DNA of 10,174 nt from a virus. Lineage: Duplodnaviria; Heunggongvirae; Uroviricota; Caudoviricetes. The translations under genes and the position numbers were made by a program. This document shows positions 1 through 7,251 of this stretch, piece after piece. The notes beneath the pieces were generated by a model that was given only the letters and a program-made list of their open reading frames with translations, had not been told where the DNA came from and did no database searches. The stretch lies in IMG/VR virus record IMGVR_UViG_2548876862_000020. The stretch is one strand, 5' to 3'. Numbering within the stretch: position 1 is the first letter of the stretch; each line of letters starts with the position of its first letter.

Positions 1-1251
1 GTGCTTACCGATACAAAATTAAAAAACCTCAAGCCGCAGGACAAACTGTACAAGGTCTCCGATCGTGACGGGCTGTATGTAGCTGTGCTTACGTCAGGCA
101 CGGTCTCGTTTCGCTATGACTACCGTATCAACGGTCGCCGCGAAACACTGGTAATCGGGCAGTATGGGCGTGACGGTATCAGCCTGGCAGAAGCGCGAGA
201 AGAACTGATTGCTGCAAAGAAGCTGCTTAAAGCAGGCCAGTCGCCGGCTGCGGCTAAACGTGACGGTATCAAAAAGATTCGTGGTGCCGAGACGTTTGCG
301 GTACATACCGACAGTTATATGAAACACGTCATCCTGGCTGACAGTACCCGCGCAATGAAGCAGACGGTGATCGACCGTGACATACTTCCGGTTCTTGGCA
401 ACAAAATGATGGCTGAAATTACCACATCGATGGTTCGTGATTTGTGTGACCGGATTGTCGAACGCGGTGGTCGGGCAACAGCAGTACAGGCCAGGGAAAT
501 CATCAGCAGCGTATACCGTCACGCCAATGACCGTGGTCATGGTTTGTTTAATCCTGCGGCTGACATTAAACCTTCGTCTATCGCCATATTTAAACCACGA
601 GAGCGAACACTGACACCAGAAGAAATTGGCCTGTTCTTCCGCACGCTGGATGCCATTGGTGCTATGGGCACTATGAAAATGGCTTTAAAGCTGGTGCTTA
701 TCACTATGGTTCGTAAAGGCGAATTCACCAATGCAACGTGGGATGAAATAGATTTTAAAAAATGGACATGGACAATTCCTTCAGACCGCATGAAGGGAAG
801 CCGGGCGCACGTTATTTACCTGCCTAAACAGGCACAGGATATATTGGTTGGGTTGCAGATGTGCGCTGGTGGAAGTGAATATCTGGTTCCTGGTCGTTAC
901 AATTTTCGGAAGCCATTATCTAATGCCGCGCTGAACTCTCTGATCGACAGAACGGTGAAAATAATAAATGAAGATGGTGAGCATATTCAGGGCTTCACCG
1001 TACACGATATGCGCCGTACAGCCAGTACGTTGTTGCATGAGGCTGGTTATCCTTCAGACTGGATTGAAAAGGCTATGGCACATGAGCAGAAAGGTGTGCG
1101 CGCCGTATATAACAAAGCGGAATACGCCAGACAGCGCGCCTACATGTTGCAGCAGTGGGCCGATATGATTGATTCCTGGATTAACAGGGAGCATACGGAT
1201 CTGATTCCGTTCTCCCCGTCGAAGTTTGAGAAGTGGATGGCGGGGGAATAA
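1..1251 (+). CDS. int: Phage tyrosine integrase, P4/IntA-like family
   Basis: 416-codon ORF from GTG at position 1. C-terminal region shows tyrosine-recombinase signature (MVRKGEF, HDMRRT, VRAVYNKAEY with candidate catalytic Tyr). N-terminus LTDTKLKNLKP resembles P4-type integrases. Start coincides with the window edge, so a few codons may lie upstream. Confidence 0.9.
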   Translation: MLTDTKLKNLKPQDKLYKVSDRDGLYVAVLTSGTVSFRYDYRINGRRETLVIGQYGRDGISLAEAREELIAAKKLLKAGQSPAAAKRDGIKKIRGAETFAVHTDSYMKHVILADSTRAMKQTVIDRDILPVLGNKMMAEITTSMVRDLCDRIVERGGRATAVQAREIISSVYRHANDRGHGLFNPAADIKPSSIAIFKPRERTLTPEEIGLFFRTLDAIGAMGTMKMALKLVLITMVRKGEFTNATWDEIDFKKWTWTIPSDRMKGSRAHVIYLPKQAQDILVGLQMCAGGSEYLVPGRYNFRKPLSNAALNSLIDRTVKIINEDGEHIQGFTVHDMRRTASTLLHEAGYPSDWIEKAMAHEQKGVRAVYNKAEYARQRAYMLQQWADMIDSWINREHTDLIPFSPSKFEKWMAGE

Positions 1252-1254
1252 CGT

Positions 1255-1449
1255 TTAATAGTTCTGCTGATTTTCTTCCATCTCTGCTTCTGCTGCCAGT
1301 GATTCAATTTTGTTTTCGAATATTGCTGACAGTGTTGCAAATTCAGCATCAGTGACAGCGGGAATTGGAACAAACCTGATCCCGCTGTGTGCAAGCATGT
1401 TTGCAGTTTCAAGGCATTTTCTTAAATCTGCTGGTGATGCCCTGTTCAT
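1255..1449 (-). CDS. Hypothetical small acidic protein (64 aa), translationally coupled to the methyltransferase
   Basis: Internal ATG at 1449-1447 of track ORF 1255..1569 overlaps the methyltransferase TGA stop (1448-1446) as ATGA. GGGAG sits 8-9 nt upstream. Stop lies 3 nt from the convergent int stop. The longer 104-aa form would overlap 120 nt of the methyltransferase gene and was not preferred. Confidence 0.5.
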   Translation of the reverse strand: MNRASPADLRKCLETANMLAHSGIRFVPIPAVTDAEFATLSAIFENKIESLAAEAEMEENQQNY

Positions 1450-2096
1450 GCAGCACGCTCCCGCCCCTGGTTGTCTGTTGGTGACAGCGGAGAATTGCTG
1501 AATGCATTTGTTAATCCGCCAATATCCAACGCGTATCCAGGGTGTAGTTGCACTGCCGGGTCTTCGCACTGATTACCCCAAACATCGAAGCCATGAGACG
1601 ACTGGCGGGCGAATAGTTCAATGCGAGAAACATCGCCTAACAATTGCACAAGTTTTTCACGAACGACATCTGGTTTTCTTGAGTGCTCAAGCCGCGGTGC
1701 GGTAAATGACTGAACGATCCCTGCATTAATGCGCGGAGGTAGTTTTCCCTTTACCGCAAACAGGCAATCTTCACTATTGGCGCGAGTCATGTGTCCCATA
1801 CCCATAACCAGTTTATCTGGTTGTCGACTACCACATTTTATCCACGTGAATCCCTTCATGGTCATCAGACGGAATCCCCAGGCTTCAACAACTTTTAGTG
1901 CTTCGAGTGGTTGTGTTGGCACCCACCACATGGCCAACAGACAGTTTTCATCGGCCAAATCCCACACAGGAAGGCGGCAGATATCCAGCACACTCATAAC
2001 CGGATATTTAAAACCGGCACCGCGATTACCATCTGCGGCTTTATCCCGGTATACCCAGGGTGGATCTGCATAGATTAGCGTGTATTTCTTAGTCAT
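1446..2096 (-). CDS. Orphan N6-adenine DNA methyltransferase, MT-A70 family
   Basis: 216-aa ORF with N-terminal IYADPPW (DPPW catalytic motif of MT-A70-type amino-methyltransferases). No adjacent restriction endonuclease gene. Lies in the prophage left arm, as do Dam-like methylases of Stx-type phages. Confidence 0.85.
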   Translation of the reverse strand: MTKKYTLIYADPPWVYRDKAADGNRGAGFKYPVMSVLDICRLPVWDLADENCLLAMWWVPTQPLEALKVVEAWGFRLMTMKGFTWIKCGSRQPDKLVMGMGHMTRANSEDCLFAVKGKLPPRINAGIVQSFTAPRLEHSRKPDVVREKLVQLLGDVSRIELFARQSSHGFDVWGNQCEDPAVQLHPGYALDIGGLTNAFSNSPLSPTDNQGRERAA

Positions 2097-2388
2097 AAAC
2101 CACCCCGCAACATCCTATGCCGCTATAGTCGCCACGGCGAAGGCCGTTACCTTTTGTGATACATTGGTCCCTGCGAACCGCGATCCTTGCACGCTCAACA
2201 TCACCAGAAGCAACATCCATACACTGAAGCCAAAGGTGGGCAGCAATGCGGAACTGCCCTTTTTTCTCTCTTTCAATCGCGCGTTTTTCGATCTCTATCG
2301 CCGCAGGAGTAACGGCAACAACCTTTGAAGGGCTGCGCATTGAAACCTTGTTCATGTGATATTTTTCAAGTCGGCTTAACTTTCTCAC
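2089..2388 (-). CDS. Hypothetical basic protein (99 aa) with C-terminal Cys cluster; first gene of the methyltransferase block
   Basis: ORF with GTG start at 2388 preceded by GAGAGGG. Its 3' end overlaps the methyltransferase start by 8 nt. Arg/Lys-rich, ends in GIGCCGVVYD. Family not recognised with confidence (possibly ANR-like small regulator). Confidence 0.5.
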   Translation of the reverse strand: MRKLSRLEKYHMNKVSMRSPSKVVAVTPAAIEIEKRAIEREKKGQFRIAAHLWLQCMDVASGDVERARIAVRRDQCITKGNGLRRGDYSGIGCCGVVYD

Positions 2389-2497
2389 TTAATCCAACCC
2401 TCTCTGAAAATTAATGCCAGCAGATAAAGCCATGCTGAAACAGAGGCCAGGAATAAGTACCATCCTGACCATTTGCTCCAGTGCCTTAGCAGCACAC

Positions 2498-2746
2498 TCA
2501 TGCCGCGTTGCTCACAGGACGATATACACGTTGCTGAACAGGAGGTTTTTTACCCTGGAACTCTGCCGGGCTTGCTGCCTGACGTTCATCAAGCCAACGC
2601 TCAACTTCATCACGGTTCCATGCGCAGCGTTTGTCAGTGATATACCAGCGTTTAGGAAATTCCCCTGCGCGCTCCATACGGTCGATAGTGCTCCATGACA
2701 GTGGCACCACCGCCAGGAGTTCCTTCTTACCTAATGCACCTTTCAT
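2498..2746 (-). CDS. AlpA-family HTH protein (prophage regulatory / excisionase-like)
   Basis: 82-aa ORF with ATG at 2746 preceded by AGAGAGG. Segment LLAVVPLSWSTIDRMERAGEFPKRWYITDKRCAWNRDEVERW matches the AlpA/Vis-type winged-HTH pattern. Confidence 0.7.
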   Translation of the reverse strand: MKGALGKKELLAVVPLSWSTIDRMERAGEFPKRWYITDKRCAWNRDEVERWLDERQAASPAEFQGKKPPVQQRVYRPVSNAA

Positions 2747-2795: not shown

Positions 2796-3677
2796 TTACA
2801 TAGATGTTTCGTTTAATTCTTCCCGACGAACGCTGTAAACGTCGGTGGCTTTTGCCAGCAGTTCGTCATCATCTGAAAGTTTTTGTGCAATGTATTTGTA
2901 AGCCTTATCCAGTTCGGAGACAGTGCTGTAATTCATCGCTGCGCTGGTAAAGGCCATCAGCATTTCTTCTGGATCACGGCTATCCGCTTTACGCGTTTGC
3001 TCATCATGCTTTTTCGCTGGTTTAGCGTTGATCAGACTGTTCATTCCCGCAGCAGTAGTCGTTTGCGGAGTAATGTCTCGCTCAACGCGCGGTGCCGTTT
3101 CCTGTAATTCGTCAGGGGTGTAAACACCGAGAAGCACATCAGGAGCGTGCAGGCGAGCCCATCGTTTCGTGCAAAGATAGGCAAGCTGCTGGCGCGGATC
3201 CTGTTCCCACAATGGAGAGTTACGCACTCCGGCTTGCGCCATACTGATGGTAAGCTCACGGGGTTCTGCTTCTCCTTTAAGAACTGCTGACACAGTTACC
3301 GTCAGATTCGGTGATTTATCTGTTTTGCCGTTAACATTCGACCAGTCACCGCTCCAGCGATAATTCAGGCGTGTCGCTAGCAGGCTGGAAGAGGATACGA
3401 CCGCGTTTACCAACTGTGCTTCGTAGCCTAACGTTCCGTTTACCACATGCGTTTTCTGCGCCACGGCGAAAGGGTTCATTCCCCACTGTGCCGCCTGCAT
3501 GGTCACCGCCAGACAATCGGAAGGTTTGCCTTCAAGATGTTTCGGTACAGTCGCTTTGCTTTGTGACATCAACTCCGCGAAACGCACCAGTTGATTCATG
3601 CCCTCGGGGCTGAAGATTGCCGCAGCAGTGCCTACAGTTGCGCCTGGTTGTGATGTGATTGCGATATCATTGCTCAT
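2796..3677 (-). CDS. recT: RecT/Bet-family single-strand annealing recombinase
   Basis: 293-aa ORF. Segments MQAAQWGMNPF and RVERDITP resemble lambda Bet / RecT. Start ATG overlaps the upstream exonuclease stop as ATGA (3677-3674). Confidence 0.85.
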   Translation of the reverse strand: MSNDIAITSQPGATVGTAAAIFSPEGMNQLVRFAELMSQSKATVPKHLEGKPSDCLAVTMQAAQWGMNPFAVAQKTHVVNGTLGYEAQLVNAVVSSSSLLATRLNYRWSGDWSNVNGKTDKSPNLTVTVSAVLKGEAEPRELTISMAQAGVRNSPLWEQDPRQQLAYLCTKRWARLHAPDVLLGVYTPDELQETAPRVERDITPQTTTAAGMNSLINAKPAKKHDEQTRKADSRDPEEMLMAFTSAAMNYSTVSELDKAYKYIAQKLSDDDELLAKATDVYSVRREELNETSM

Positions 3678-4495
3678 ACATACATATCCTGTTTACGTGC
3701 CCAGTCAGGGCGTTTAATAATTTCCACTCCGCCCCATTCATCGTTGATGCGGCATTCGTGATAGGTATTCAGATCCCGGCGGAACAGAGCGTGCCCGGCA
3801 TCGACATCCTGCGCATCCAGCTCGAACACGCGTACCGGATACCGACCACAATCAATGCTTTCGCTCACGGCAAGAAAGAAAAAACCATGCGTCTGACCAG
3901 TAACCCTCATTGCGCCTTCGCGGTACATTGCGTCCTGCACGTGGTAGCGGAATTCCTCGATGTGGCGTGCAAAACGGTCCATATCTGCAACCTTTTTCAC
4001 GTCGACGATCACGTTGTGCTCGTTCAGCCATTTGTCTGGACGAATGCGGCACAACTCACCAGTATCTTCATCGTTCCAGTACATTGATGCTTCGCAGTAA
4101 CCAGGTGCTTCCAGCATCCAGCGTGCCGCCGGGTGAGCCATTGCGCTATCACGCATCAGCTCCAGTTTCCGCCACTGCTCGGCATCAAGTACCGTAATCC
4201 CCATATCCGCCACATCACGAAGAAATGCCTCTTCGTCAGCTTTACCTTGTTTCGTCCGACGATCGAATTTCGGTGAAACAATGAAGCGTTTGTCGAACTC
4301 TCCAGGCTCCAGAAGCAGACAGTGCAATGCGGTTCCCATATCCAGTGCAGACTTTTTCTCTTCGTCTTCTGGTGCTGCCTGAACCCATTTAAGAAGCGCC
4401 GGATTCTTGGCAACCATGTCCAGTTGCGACTTACTCACGCCGTCACCTGCGTGGTAGTCTTCGTTGCTGATGTCGAAATAAATTCCCGGTTTCAT
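3674..4495 (-). CDS. RecE-like short-form exonuclease (exonuclease VIII-like, PD-(D/E)XK fold)
   Basis: 273-aa ORF starting MKPGIYFDISNEDYHAGDGVSKSQLD, typical of prophage short exonuclease VIII-like proteins. Candidate D...E-x-K nuclease motif around RPDKW...VDVKK. Paired and translationally coupled with recT. Confidence 0.8.
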   Translation of the reverse strand: MKPGIYFDISNEDYHAGDGVSKSQLDMVAKNPALLKWVQAAPEDEEKKSALDMGTALHCLLLEPGEFDKRFIVSPKFDRRTKQGKADEEAFLRDVADMGITVLDAEQWRKLELMRDSAMAHPAARWMLEAPGYCEASMYWNDEDTGELCRIRPDKWLNEHNVIVDVKKVADMDRFARHIEEFRYHVQDAMYREGAMRVTGQTHGFFFLAVSESIDCGRYPVRVFELDAQDVDAGHALFRRDLNTYHECRINDEWGGVEIIKRPDWARKQDMYV

Positions 4496-4965: not shown

Positions 4966-5042
4966 TTACCGTTGAGGTAATGATTATGCGTATCTGGTTT
5001 GATGTCAATAGATATGAGTTAAAAAAATTACCCATAAGGTAA
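4966..5042 (-). promoter_or_regulatory. pL-like promoter flanked by two operator palindromes
   Basis: Minus strand reads operator TTACCTTATGGGTAA (5042-5028), 19 bp, -35 TTGACA (5008-5003), 17-bp spacer, -10 AATCAT (4985-4980), operator TTACCTCAACGGTAA (4980-4966). Operator centres are 62 bp apart. Confidence 0.6.
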
Positions 5043-6435: not shown

Positions 6436-7251
6436 ATGAGCAGACATGCAACAGATTGGGCCTGGGAGACAGATCCAGGTAGCTCGTCATTAAAGCTCAT
6501 ACTGCTCTCGATGGCTGACAGAGCCGATGAATATAACCTCTGCTACCCCAGCATAGAACGCCTCGTTAAAGACACTTGCCTGAATAAAAAAACCGTACAG
6601 GCCGGGCTTATATCGCTCATGAAAATGGGGCTTATTTCAGATACCGGAGAGAGAAAGGGTGCGACGAAAAGAGTGCGGGTTTTCTCTCTTAATATAACCA
6701 AAAACGGGAACATTAAAGGCAACCGGGAGGGAGGTAATGAACCCAAAAACGGTAATGTTACCGAAAACGGGAATATACCCAAAAACGGGATGTTGAATAT
6801 ACCCAAAAACGGGATGTTGAATGATCCCAAAAACGGGATCCAGAACCAGTCATATAACCAGTCATTTAACCAAGAGAGGGAGAGCAGGACAAAAACCGGG
6901 GATTCTGTTCCTCATGACCCCGGCGCAAACAACGCCGTGATGAATAACTTTGTTCCTCCTGGTGGGCTAGGGCAATTAGGCAAATTTGTCATGCATGAAC
7001 AATGGCAACCATCAGATGACTTTCTTCGGAAAAGCTCATTGCAGGGGATCTACCTGGACAGTCTGCCAACGGCACAGGAACTTGCAGAGTTCAGAATTTA
7101 CTGGATGGCTGAGGGTAAGGCATACCATCAGGCACAGTGGGAGCAGAAGCTGGCAAGGCGGCTGCAGATTAGCAGACAGAAGCAATCAACATTACCTGAT
7201 AACAACGTTCCGCACTGGAACAGCCCTGAAGCGTGGGAGGATTTCTTGTGA
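6436..7251 (+). CDS. Replication initiator, O-like (winged-helix N-domain, repeat linker, C-domain)
   Basis: 271-aa ORF, ATG 6436 preceded by GGAG at 7 nt. Contains DNA iterons internally. Immediately followed by and overlapped with a lambda P-like gene. Confidence 0.8.
   Translation: MSRHATDWAWETDPGSSSLKLILLSMADRADEYNLCYPSIERLVKDTCLNKKTVQAGLISLMKMGLISDTGERKGATKRVRVFSLNITKNGNIKGNREGGNEPKNGNVTENGNIPKNGMLNIPKNGMLNDPKNGIQNQSYNQSFNQERESRTKTGDSVPHDPGANNAVMNNFVPPGGLGQLGKFVMHEQWQPSDDFLRKSSLQGIYLDSLPTAQELAEFRIYWMAEGKAYHQAQWEQKLARRLQISRQKQSTLPDNNVPHWNSPEAWEDFL
6698..6840 (+). repeat. Origin-like iterons inside the O-like gene
   Basis: Six copies of core CCAAAAACGG(G/T)A at 6698, 6743, 6762, 6778, 6802, 6826. 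Two exact 24-bp tandem units at 6775-6798 and 6799-6822. Followed by tandem CAGTCAT(A/T)TAACC at 6847-6871. Encodes the low-complexity PKNG peptide repeat. Confidence 0.75.

Follow-up and report, generated by a model that had tools for sequence, protein, structure and literature searches.

An MT-A70 methylase gene and its two overlapping neighbours in the early-left operon of a phiV10-like prophage

The integrase-proximal end of the operon

The window analysed here is a 10,174-nt stretch of phage DNA (IMG/VR record IMGVR_UViG_2548876862_000020). Its block at 1255-2388 makes up the part of the early-left operon nearest the integrase gene; the prophage is phiV10-like (Uetakevirus, epsilon15-type), and its integration site adjoins guaA. 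The three overlapping genes reported in the first-pass annotation are present in the sequence, all on the minus strand. The first, with a GTG start, encodes a small basic protein of the PerC family (99 aa; 2089..2388). It is followed by the gene for an orphan MT-A70 N6-adenine methyltransferase of the beta class with a DPPW motif (216 aa; 1446..2096) and by that for an acidic 64-aa protein of the DUF1382 family, a homologue of lambda Orf63 (1255..1449). These are the counterparts of phiV10 p34, p33, and p32, respectively. The gene for a P4-type tyrosine integrase (1..1251) is on the plus strand and converges with the block, its stop codon being 3 nt from that of the DUF1382 gene.

The gene order leading into the block is exo, recT, AlpA, p35, PerC, methylase, and DUF1382, all in the minus orientation. 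The DUF3799 PD-(D/E)XK exonuclease gene (3674-4495) and recT (2796-3677), both carrying RefSeq annotations at the matching E. coli locus, overlap by 4 nt and form the upstream part of the same operon. The AlpA-family excisionase/regulator gene (2498..2746; PF05930, 24.2 bits, and a phrog_66 match) directly follows the single intergenic gap in the operon. It is chained to the PerC gene by 4-nt overlaps through a gene for a 38-aa small membrane protein (2385..2501). This protein is a RefSeq-annotated homologue of phiV10 p35 and is 76-79% conserved in Tyrion and in an epsilon15-like Salmonella phage.

The block is approximately 98% identical (range 97.6-98.5% at the nucleotide level) to phiV10 genes p32-p34 and their relatives. 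When it is compared with PhiV10p32-p34 (NC_007804) and with the guaA prophages of E. coli, the order, the overlaps, and the sequence are alike (97.6% over 1251 nt). The window and phiV10 show point differences only, apart from the annotated PerC start, which gives 88 or 83 aa as against the conserved 99 aa. In these genomes the genes are annotated as a DUF1382 family protein, a DNA methyltransferase, and a PerC-family transcriptional activator. The same three-gene block, with the same NCBI product names, was found in 545 of 5426 complete E. coli genomes. It is a common piece of phiV10-like E. coli prophages, already annotated, and its parts come from described families. The composition profile is even across the region and the block is not compositionally foreign. 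RNA families were absent from the Rfam scan of the entire window.

Overlapping junctions extend over almost the whole operon. From about position 4980 down to 1255, the successive junctions are a 13-nt overlap (with another choice of start, a 2-nt gap), overlaps of 4 and 4 nt, a 49-nt gap, and overlaps of 4, 4, 8, and 4 nt; this means that seven of the eight overlap by 4-13 nt. The 8-nt overlap, TATGACTAA, joins the end of the PerC-like gene to the start of the methylase gene, and the ATG of the DUF1382 gene shares ATGA with the TGA of the methylase gene. The 3' junction of the PerC gene, GGGGTGGTnTATGACTAA, is identical whether an MT-A70 or a DUF1317 gene comes next. A promoter-like site on the minus strand, TTGACA-17-AATCAT at 4980..5008, is a consensus match only; it follows a terminator-like site at 5079-5060 and is the sole sigma-70-like minus-strand match upstream of the block. 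Between 4980 and 1255, the promoter/terminator scan, in which site counts were no higher than in shuffled sequences, gave no promoter-like or terminator-like site on this strand.

It had been proposed from this tight coupling that the three products act together as one functional unit, in which the flanking proteins set the specificity of the methylase or regulate it. The translationally coupled overlaps would fit such a unit; however, they are operon-wide, and the PerC junction is a feature of the backbone that is the same with either gene next. The overlaps are best explained by operon-wide compaction and translational coupling, as are usual in the early operons of phages, with exchange of cassettes at conserved junctions.

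The two small proteins and the methylase

The basic and the acidic neighbours, with net charges of +9 and -5, are both genuine conserved genes. Both proteins pass the Pfam gathering thresholds, have homologues across the Enterobacteriaceae, and show pN well below pS against diverged homologues; spurious overlap ORFs were ruled out by these family matches, by the conservation, and by the excess of pS over pN. The statement that neither protein could be assigned to a known family did not hold: they belong to PerC (PF06069) and to DUF1382, the family of lambda Orf63, and NCBI names both accordingly.

The PerC match covers residues 35-80 (30.1 bits; gathering threshold 22.6), and phrog_868 matches the entire protein (1-99/99; 6.5e-62). 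The profile for ANR, the AraC negative regulator (NCBIfam NF033650), gave 23.6 bits, below its cutoff of 32. The protein contains 20 Lys and Arg and 11 Asp and Glu residues, and its dN/dS against diverged homologues is approximately 0.09-0.19. The N-terminal extension is kept in homologues of 59-85% identity, in which Y10 is invariant and H11 is nearly so. In addition, a Shine-Dalgarno-like GAGAGGG run precedes the GTG codon, and this codon shares GTGA with the stop of the 38-aa gene upstream. On these grounds, the 99-aa start seems better supported than the annotated ones of 88 aa (phiV10 RefSeq) or 83 aa (PGAP).

The AF2 model of this protein has a three-helix core (residues 28-80), which is a bundle and not a winged helix, and has no HTH. 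A Foldseek comparison of the model with the PDB gave only weak matches to MIT/TPR-like three-helix structures (E >0.3), and the PerC profile had no significant match among PDB sequences. EPEC PerC and EHEC PchA-E share with it the above-threshold family match and are likewise small, basic, helical, and prophage-encoded. However, the similarity is limited to approximately 46 core residues, and the PerC-like protein has its own conserved N- and C-terminal extensions. It also occurs in many non-LEE Enterobacteriaceae. Pch works via relief of H-NS silencing (PMC4764244). By analogy, the PerC-like protein, which belongs to the conserved backbone (AlpA, p35, PerC), probably serves in anti-silencing or regulation.

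The 64-aa protein matches PF07131 (DUF1382) over the full model (1-60/60) with 105.2 bits, against a gathering threshold of 27, and its residues 2-62 match Orf63 in PDB entry 8DSB (E = 8.5e-13). Its tail is AEAEMEENQQNY. The orf63 gene of lambda itself carries the DUF1382 annotation. As in the exo-xis region of lambda (orf60a/DUF1317, orf63/DUF1382, orf61, orf73, ea22), the gene sits between the recombination genes and int in a pL-type early-left operon. The lambda order of DUF1317 followed by DUF1382 is retained in relatives of the window, whereas the window itself is without orf60a and has the orf63 homologue placed after the methylase; lambda lacks both a methylase and a PerC gene in this region. 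Orf63 is described as a pro-lytic dimer with a cleft that binds an amphipathic helix (PMC10869804). The homologue in the window probably comes from this exo-xis pool of small developmental genes and may share the pro-lytic role.

Another possibility is that one or both small proteins have no connection with methylation and serve in anti-defence or host takeover. The helix-binding cleft of an Orf63-like protein could, for instance, bind a host protein, and the PerC-like protein could counter H-NS-type silencing of the prophage. The reported properties of Orf63 and Pch point in this direction, and the hypervariable accessory region that holds both genes is of the kind in which such factors are typically encoded. 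Against it, the PADLOC scan of the small proteins gave zero matches and other defence-related matches were nil. We regard this possibility as unlikely; in any case it is largely compatible with three independent accessory genes, the reading preferred below, and does not really compete with it.

The recognition of the middle gene as an orphan MT-A70/DPPW methylase in a prophage left arm is supported. PF05063 (MT-A70) aligns with residues 5-176 over the whole model (1-172/172) at 78.6 bits (gathering threshold 23.9), and catalytic motif IV is YADPPW at residues 9-14. The enzyme is 83% identical to M.EcoPA8orf6770P of Stx2a phage PA8 over residues 1-187 (E = 2e-123); its C-terminal tail (188-216) is its own and is unrelated to that of the PA8 enzyme. 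No endonuclease adjoins the methylase in the window, where its neighbours are PerC, DUF1382, and int, in agreement with the earlier description. With no adjacent endonuclease, and with MTase_II (PDLC03262, 6e-77, the methylase) as the only PADLOC match, a Type II restriction-modification system was rejected. The closest solved structures by sequence are Tetrahymena MTA1 (E ~4e-13) and METTL3 (~4e-6), which share the DPPW catalytic core. MTA1c and METTL3-METTL14 need an inactive paralogous subunit and DNA- or RNA-binding partners, whereas the window encodes no paralogue or conserved partner.

Gene order between PerC and the integrase in related prophages

A scan of viral contigs with the methylase gave only copies of 97-100% identity, and because these near-identical copies held no diversity, the comparison of gene orders was anchored on PerC (and on PNB-2, the PA8 protein described below) instead. 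The resulting set comprises 103 distinct PerC-to-integrase segments. A scan of GTDB species representatives with the PerC profile gave 7 loci only.

All 103 segments contain a DNA methylase: MT-A70 in 87 (86 in the first count, and segment L133, later shown to carry one), a PF05869 Dam enzyme in 12, and a C5+Dam fusion in 4. The Dam and C5+Dam enzymes lie in exactly the same slot of sister prophages, between PerC (or PNB-2) and int. As members of an unrelated fold family, they correspond to the MT-A70 enzyme in position but are not homologous to it. HK639-like phages draw on the same cassette pool after their PNB-2 homologues. Because non-homologous enzymes are swapped in one slot, we argue that DNA methylation would be the activity under selection.

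The genes around this slot are mosaic, with 27 gene orders among the 103 segments. Fifty-one of the segments contain DUF1382, which precedes the methylase in 13 cases and comes after it in 37; five times it occurs together with the unrelated Dam family. Forty-one MT-A70 loci are without DUF1382. In 17 segments, of the PerC, MT-A70, NinI type, a NinI phosphatase replaces it after the methylase; in PAS61, which is of this type, the methylase is essentially unchanged (96.8% identical, tail included). In a natural PerC::DUF1382 fusion, the methylase is absent. PerC itself lies upstream of all three methylase families, in most cases with DUF1317 or other genes in between. In some relatives, an upstream protein of 168 aa, absent from the window, has a sub-threshold PD-(D/E)XK match.

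A fixed three-gene association is thus not what these segments show. The order PerC, MT-A70, DUF1382 is the commonest E. coli architecture (37 of the 103 unique segments), which, together with the 545 genomes that carry the block, speaks for a single functional unit. Nevertheless, the multiplicity of architectures, the occurrence of DUF1382 before or after the methylase and together with Dam, its loss or replacement beside an unchanged methylase, and the fusion without a methylase all speak against it, and we consider such a unit very improbable. Judged from these sequence comparisons, the block appears to be a set of shuffled accessory genes, not a dedicated three-protein machine. It should be mentioned that in the phiV10 lineage the adjacency of PerC and MT-A70 is nearly universal, with DUF1382 next in about two thirds; since this is so, a lineage-specific interaction might exist there.

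Partner dependence and possible role of the methylase

We consider it reasonably probable that the block consists of three independent accessory genes: a stand-alone Dam-like DNA adenine methylase and two independent flanking genes. The methylase occupies a slot in which each related prophage carries a DNA methylase of one kind or another. Methylases of the beta class are typically homodimeric, and the enzyme is probably a homodimer too and would need no specificity subunit encoded by the phage. It is expected to be a Dam-like DNA N6-adenine enzyme, probably acting on GATC, whose substrates would be the DNA of the phage and of the host, at induction or early in lytic growth. In this way the replicating phage DNA might be kept methylated, for protection or for epigenetic timing.

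Such a specificity is consistent with published work on similar enzymes. In two secondary sources (PMC10810198; PMC6602927), M.EcoGV from E. coli O104:H4, which is highly similar to the PA8 enzyme, is described as methylating GATC in vivo when expressed without a partner, an activity seen on overexpression only. REBASE predicts GATC for similar enzymes (PMC10810198; PMC6602927). On the other hand, a further enzyme of GATC specificity would seem redundant beside the Dam that enterobacterial hosts already possess, which weighs against a stand-alone Dam-like methylase.

The first-pass annotation had also named the flanking proteins as candidate partners of the methylase. There is a precedent with a near-orthologous enzyme: PNB-2, a small protein encoded upstream and adjacent, is the only proven partner of M.EcoPA8orf6770P (Gong, Chakraborty and Koudelka, NAR 2023, PMC10810198). 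The purified enzyme was essentially inactive in vitro on GATC-unmethylated DNA, it needed PNB-2 for strong activity, which was on 16S rRNA, and it raises prophage induction (PMC10810198). This means that independent action on DNA, as assumed above, may be wrong. The precedent of an adjacent partner supports the proposal in part; the identity of the partner does not carry over, for the PerC-like protein has no PNB-2 similarity. PNB-2 (a 143-aa winged-helix protein, phrog_1680) is absent from the window by tblastn and does not align with the PerC-like protein. A relationship of the latter to PNB-2 or to PA28 gp06 was rejected, as no similarity was found.

The two phages are alike in having an integrase-proximal left arm in which a small gene overlaps the methylase start and a DUF1382 gene follows the methylase. 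They differ in that the upstream protein is of the PerC family in the window and an unrelated winged-helix protein in PA8, and in that the methylase tails diverge past residue 187. Moreover, the phage of the window is an epsilon15-type podovirus and PA8 is a lambdoid Stx phage.

From the PA8 work, the methylase might be expected to act mainly on an adenine of 16S rRNA and to increase spontaneous prophage induction, with the PerC-like protein or the Orf63 homologue as a substrate-directing subunit. The identity of 83% with the PA8 enzyme, the upstream overlapping position that the PerC-like protein shares with PNB-2, and the DUF1382 gene directly downstream in PA8 as well are in favour of this. 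So are the usually heteromeric nature of MT-A70 enzymes (METTL3-METTL14, MTA1-MTA9) and a 75-aa winged-helix protein encoded directly upstream of the Tyrion methylase. However, the PerC-like protein, modelled as an MIT/TPR-like bundle without HTH, does not resemble PNB-2, and the C-terminal tail suspected by Gong et al. of binding PNB-2 differs here. The slot is common to bona fide DNA methylase families, and backbone PerC lies equally upstream of Dam and C5+Dam, usually not adjacent to the methylase. Even in HK639-like phages, the methylase that follows the PNB-2 homologue is a Dam or C5+Dam enzyme in roughly as many cases as it is MT-A70. An rRNA methylase with a flanking subunit therefore seems to us quite unlikely.

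A broader scheme would make the backbone gene upstream of the slot (PerC-like in epsilon15/phiV10-type phages, PNB-2 in lambdoid ones) a lineage-specific adaptor, binding any adenine methylase that fills the slot and redirecting it, for instance towards rRNA or particular regions of DNA. In that case, the window would specify a new PerC-type MT-A70 holoenzyme by which prophage induction is tuned, and the Orf63 homologue would act in this pro-lytic pathway as well. To this scheme we give very little credence.

For the stand-alone methylase among independent accessory genes, the comparison with PA8 matters in another respect. A near-orthologue has been claimed to be partner-dependent, to methylate rRNA, and to control induction of a Shiga-toxin phage (PMC10810198). 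The presence of the same enzyme without PNB-2 in approximately 10% of complete E. coli genomes bears on the generality of the rRNA-methylase claim. The locus is otherwise routine; its residual value lies in the fact that some DNA methylase is kept at this position in every related prophage examined. As a minor and uninformative observation on composition, GATC is mildly depleted in the window, with 32 occurrences as against approximately 49 expected.

Identity of the block genes and their known annotation

The window corresponds to the left arm of a prophage that resembles phiV10 (genus Uetakevirus, epsilon15 type) and is inserted beside guaA. Three minus-strand ORFs were confirmed with the coordinates and overlaps proposed in the first-pass annotation: a 99-aa gene (2089-2388), the MT-A70 methylase gene (1446-2096) and a 64-aa gene (1255-1449), joined by overlaps of 8 nt (TATGACTAA) and 4 nt (ATGA). 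The net charges of the two small products (+9 and -5, respectively) and the acidic tail also agree with the earlier description. The methylase, an MT-A70 enzyme of the DPPW type, is intact and under purifying selection; it is an orphan, as had been stated. Both small ORFs are real genes, as indicated by family matches and by the purifying pattern against diverged homologues: in all three genes, non-synonymous differences are far fewer than synonymous ones.

The small proteins had been left without a family; profile and structure-chain searches corrected this. The 99-aa product belongs to PerC (Pfam PF06069; 30.1 bits against a threshold of 22.6) and is matched end to end by phrog_868, while its score against the NCBIfam ANR model is under the cutoff. 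In its AF2 model (mean pLDDT 73), three helices form a bundle, followed by a disordered tail; the bundle resembles MIT/TPR folds only weakly. The 64-aa product matches DUF1382 across the whole model (105 bits) and the solved structure of phage lambda Orf63 (PDB 8DSB; E = 8.5e-13); Orf63 is stated to be DUF1382 in the paper describing it (PMC10869804).

The block is not new and is annotated in public records. A 1251-nt query (window 1200-2450) showed 97.6-98.5% identity to phages phiv142-3, TL-2011b, phiV10 and O157 typing phages 9 and 10. Of 5426 complete E. coli genomes, 545 carry the block at 95-99% identity; there, the NCBI labels are "PerC family transcriptional regulator", "MT-A70 family methyltransferase" and "DUF1382 family protein", with a tyrosine integrase adjoining. 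In the phiV10 RefSeq record the same genes are p34, p33 and p32.

In public annotations (L001, and L002, the matching E. coli locus), the PerC gene begins at internal ATGs, giving 88 or 83 aa. The GTG at 2388, which gives the 99 aa of the first-pass annotation, has better support than these and is probably the true start, because the 16 extra N-terminal residues (2340-2388, minus strand) are kept across genera; homologues with 59-85% identity retain the extension, and Y10 is invariant in them. A Shine-Dalgarno-like GAGAGGG lies 5' of this GTG, which shares GTGA with the stop of the upstream gene (2385-2501, minus strand). The latter encodes a conserved 38-aa hydrophobic membrane protein, the homologue of phiV10 p35, and chains AlpA to PerC by 4-nt overlaps. 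It should be mentioned that this gene is in the phiV10 RefSeq record and missing from the PGAP annotation of L002.

Junctions and gene order

The tight coupling had been taken to suggest that the three products act together. This is not supported: overlaps run operon-wide, the PerC junction is independent of the gene that follows, and gene orders vary. A promoter-like site at 5008-4980 is the probable start of the operon, which continues with two small genes, exo, recT, AlpA, p35, PerC, methylase and DUF1382. Genes overlap at seven of the eight junctions, by 4-13 nt; the sole gap (49 nt) precedes AlpA. A promoter and terminator scan gave no minus-strand site of either kind within the operon, an Rfam scan gave no family match, and base composition is uniform in the region. 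The PerC 3' end, GGGGTGGTnTATGACTAA, is identical in relatives in which DUF1317 (MTNPHD...) comes next instead of the methylase (MTKKY...). The 8-nt overlap is thus a backbone junction for cassette exchange, not an adaptation tying PerC to this methylase.

Searches were anchored on PerC, not on the methylase, and all genes between PerC and the integrase were classified by tblastn against a reference set from annotated loci, for which the family membership of the Dam and C5+Dam sequences was checked. This gave 103 distinct complete segments from Uetakevirus-like prophages (L095-L234), in 27 gene orders. The methylase slot is always filled, by a DNA methylase from one of three families: MT-A70 in 87 segments (86 first counted and L133, shown afterwards), the PF05869 "Dam" family, unrelated to MT-A70, in 12, and a C5-cytosine + Dam fusion in 4. 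Because all segments carry a methylase though its family varies, selection on methylation itself is suggested to be strong in these phages.

The window order, PerC>MT-A70>DUF1382, was found in 37 of the 103 segments, and PerC>MT-A70>NinI phosphatase in 17. DUF1382 is present in 51, lying upstream of the methylase in 13 and downstream in 37; it accompanies Dam in 5, and MT-A70 occurs without it in 41. In most relatives outside E. coli, DUF1317 lies between PerC and the methylase, sometimes accompanied by DUF1382, NinX or unknown proteins of 168-220 aa. The methylase of phage PAS61 is 96.8% identical, C-terminal tail included, even though NinI replaces DUF1382 there. In a natural variant, the NCBI protein P0119 (3 contigs), a deletion has taken out the entire methylase gene and so fused the PerC core in frame to the body of DUF1382. 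Lambda has orf60a (DUF1317) and orf63 (DUF1382), and the methylase is absent. Such patterns are to be expected if the three genes are accessory genes of the "exo-xis" pool, each exchanged independently, and not if they encode subunits of one machine. A true three-protein unit, as the overlaps had seemed to imply, is thus highly improbable.

Two genes found upstream of MT-A70 in relatives are of note. The first, in L101 (3445-3951), encodes a protein of 168 aa and lies directly before MT-A70 with a 4-nt overlap; L108 and some IMG/VR loci have similar genes. Since the protein has a sub-threshold match to a PD-(D/E)XK endonuclease (PF11645; 24.5 bits against 26.1), the methylase may not be an orphan in these relatives. 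The second, in L106 (4948-6015; Citrobacter werkmanii), is inserted between DUF1317 and MT-A70 and widens the cassette repertoire; its product is a DGQHR-motif protein of 355 aa that looks DndB-like by eye.

The PA8 precedent and the proposed action of the methylase

A flanking protein as methylase partner, the other part of the earlier proposal, has a precedent. Gong, Chakraborty and Koudelka (NAR 2023; PMC10810198) studied M.EcoPA8orf6770P of Stx2a phage PA8, which is nearly inactive alone in vitro and co-purifies 1:1 with PNB-2, the winged-helix product of the upstream co-transcribed gene. The preferred substrate of the complex is 16S rRNA, and the methylase gene raised spontaneous induction. 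The enzyme is 83% identical to the window methylase over residues 1-187 and divergent beyond. PA8 also has a DUF1382 gene directly after the methylase, as in the window, which that paper does not discuss; with this precedent, the idea of an adjacent partner is not far-fetched. However, no PNB-2 is encoded in the window (tblastn), and the PerC-like protein is unrelated to PNB-2 by sequence comparison; its modelled three-helix bundle likewise speaks against carrying the precedent over to the window.

In a control scan of 80 loci anchored on HK639-type PNB-2 homologues (56% identical to PA8 PNB-2), the same cassette pool was found downstream as for PerC: MT-A70 in 31, PF05869 Dam in 21 and C5+Dam in 11. 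Between PNB-2 and the methylase there is usually a gene for DUF1317 or for a 55-aa product (HK639-like phages L235-L314, and L091 and L092). Because of this shared pool and the mixed methylase families, PNB-2, reported as the specificity subunit of the PA8 enzyme, seems, like PerC, to be a backbone gene at the edge of a variable methylase slot; a role as dedicated MT-A70 subunit fits awkwardly with this.

The window methylase most likely methylates adenine in DNA in the manner of Dam. Infection or induction would bring about its expression from the early-left operon, and it would work with no specificity subunit encoded by the phage. For protection or timing, it would keep the DNA of the phage methylated, and transiently that of the host. 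M.EcoGV, said to resemble the PA8 enzyme closely, methylated GATC in vivo when it was produced with no partner (PMC10810198), and GATC is the REBASE prediction for similar enzymes as given in PMC6602927. The PerC-like protein and the Orf63 homologue would each have a role of its own, the former perhaps as a Pch-like anti-silencing factor (by analogy; PMC4764244) and the latter as a pro-lytic developmental factor (cf. PMC10869804). This explanation as a whole is favoured with moderate confidence. It is weakest on one point: the PA8 enzyme, purified and used by itself, gave no GATC DNA methylation in vitro (PMC10810198). An rRNA-directed or partner-dependent enzyme seems unlikely for the window. 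The first-pass interpretation is partly supported, in that the orphan state of the methylase, the reality of the small genes and a precedent for partners all stand.

Phage PA28 has a methylase identical to that of PA8, but its upstream protein, gp06 (L003, 3816-4004), is 62 aa long and has only the last ~10 residues (LYIDEFENAL) in common with PA8 PNB-2 (L005, 2851-3282). It may be a recombination remnant, or the sole part retained for translational coupling or binding. GATC is mildly depleted in the whole window (32 observed against ~49 expected from trinucleotide frequencies), in a phage encoding a putative GATC methylase. Elsewhere, a stretch rich in Asn and Gly, in which "PKNG" and "KNGN" recur, is seen at residues ~88-135 in the translation of the DnaT-like replication protein gene (6436-7251, plus strand).
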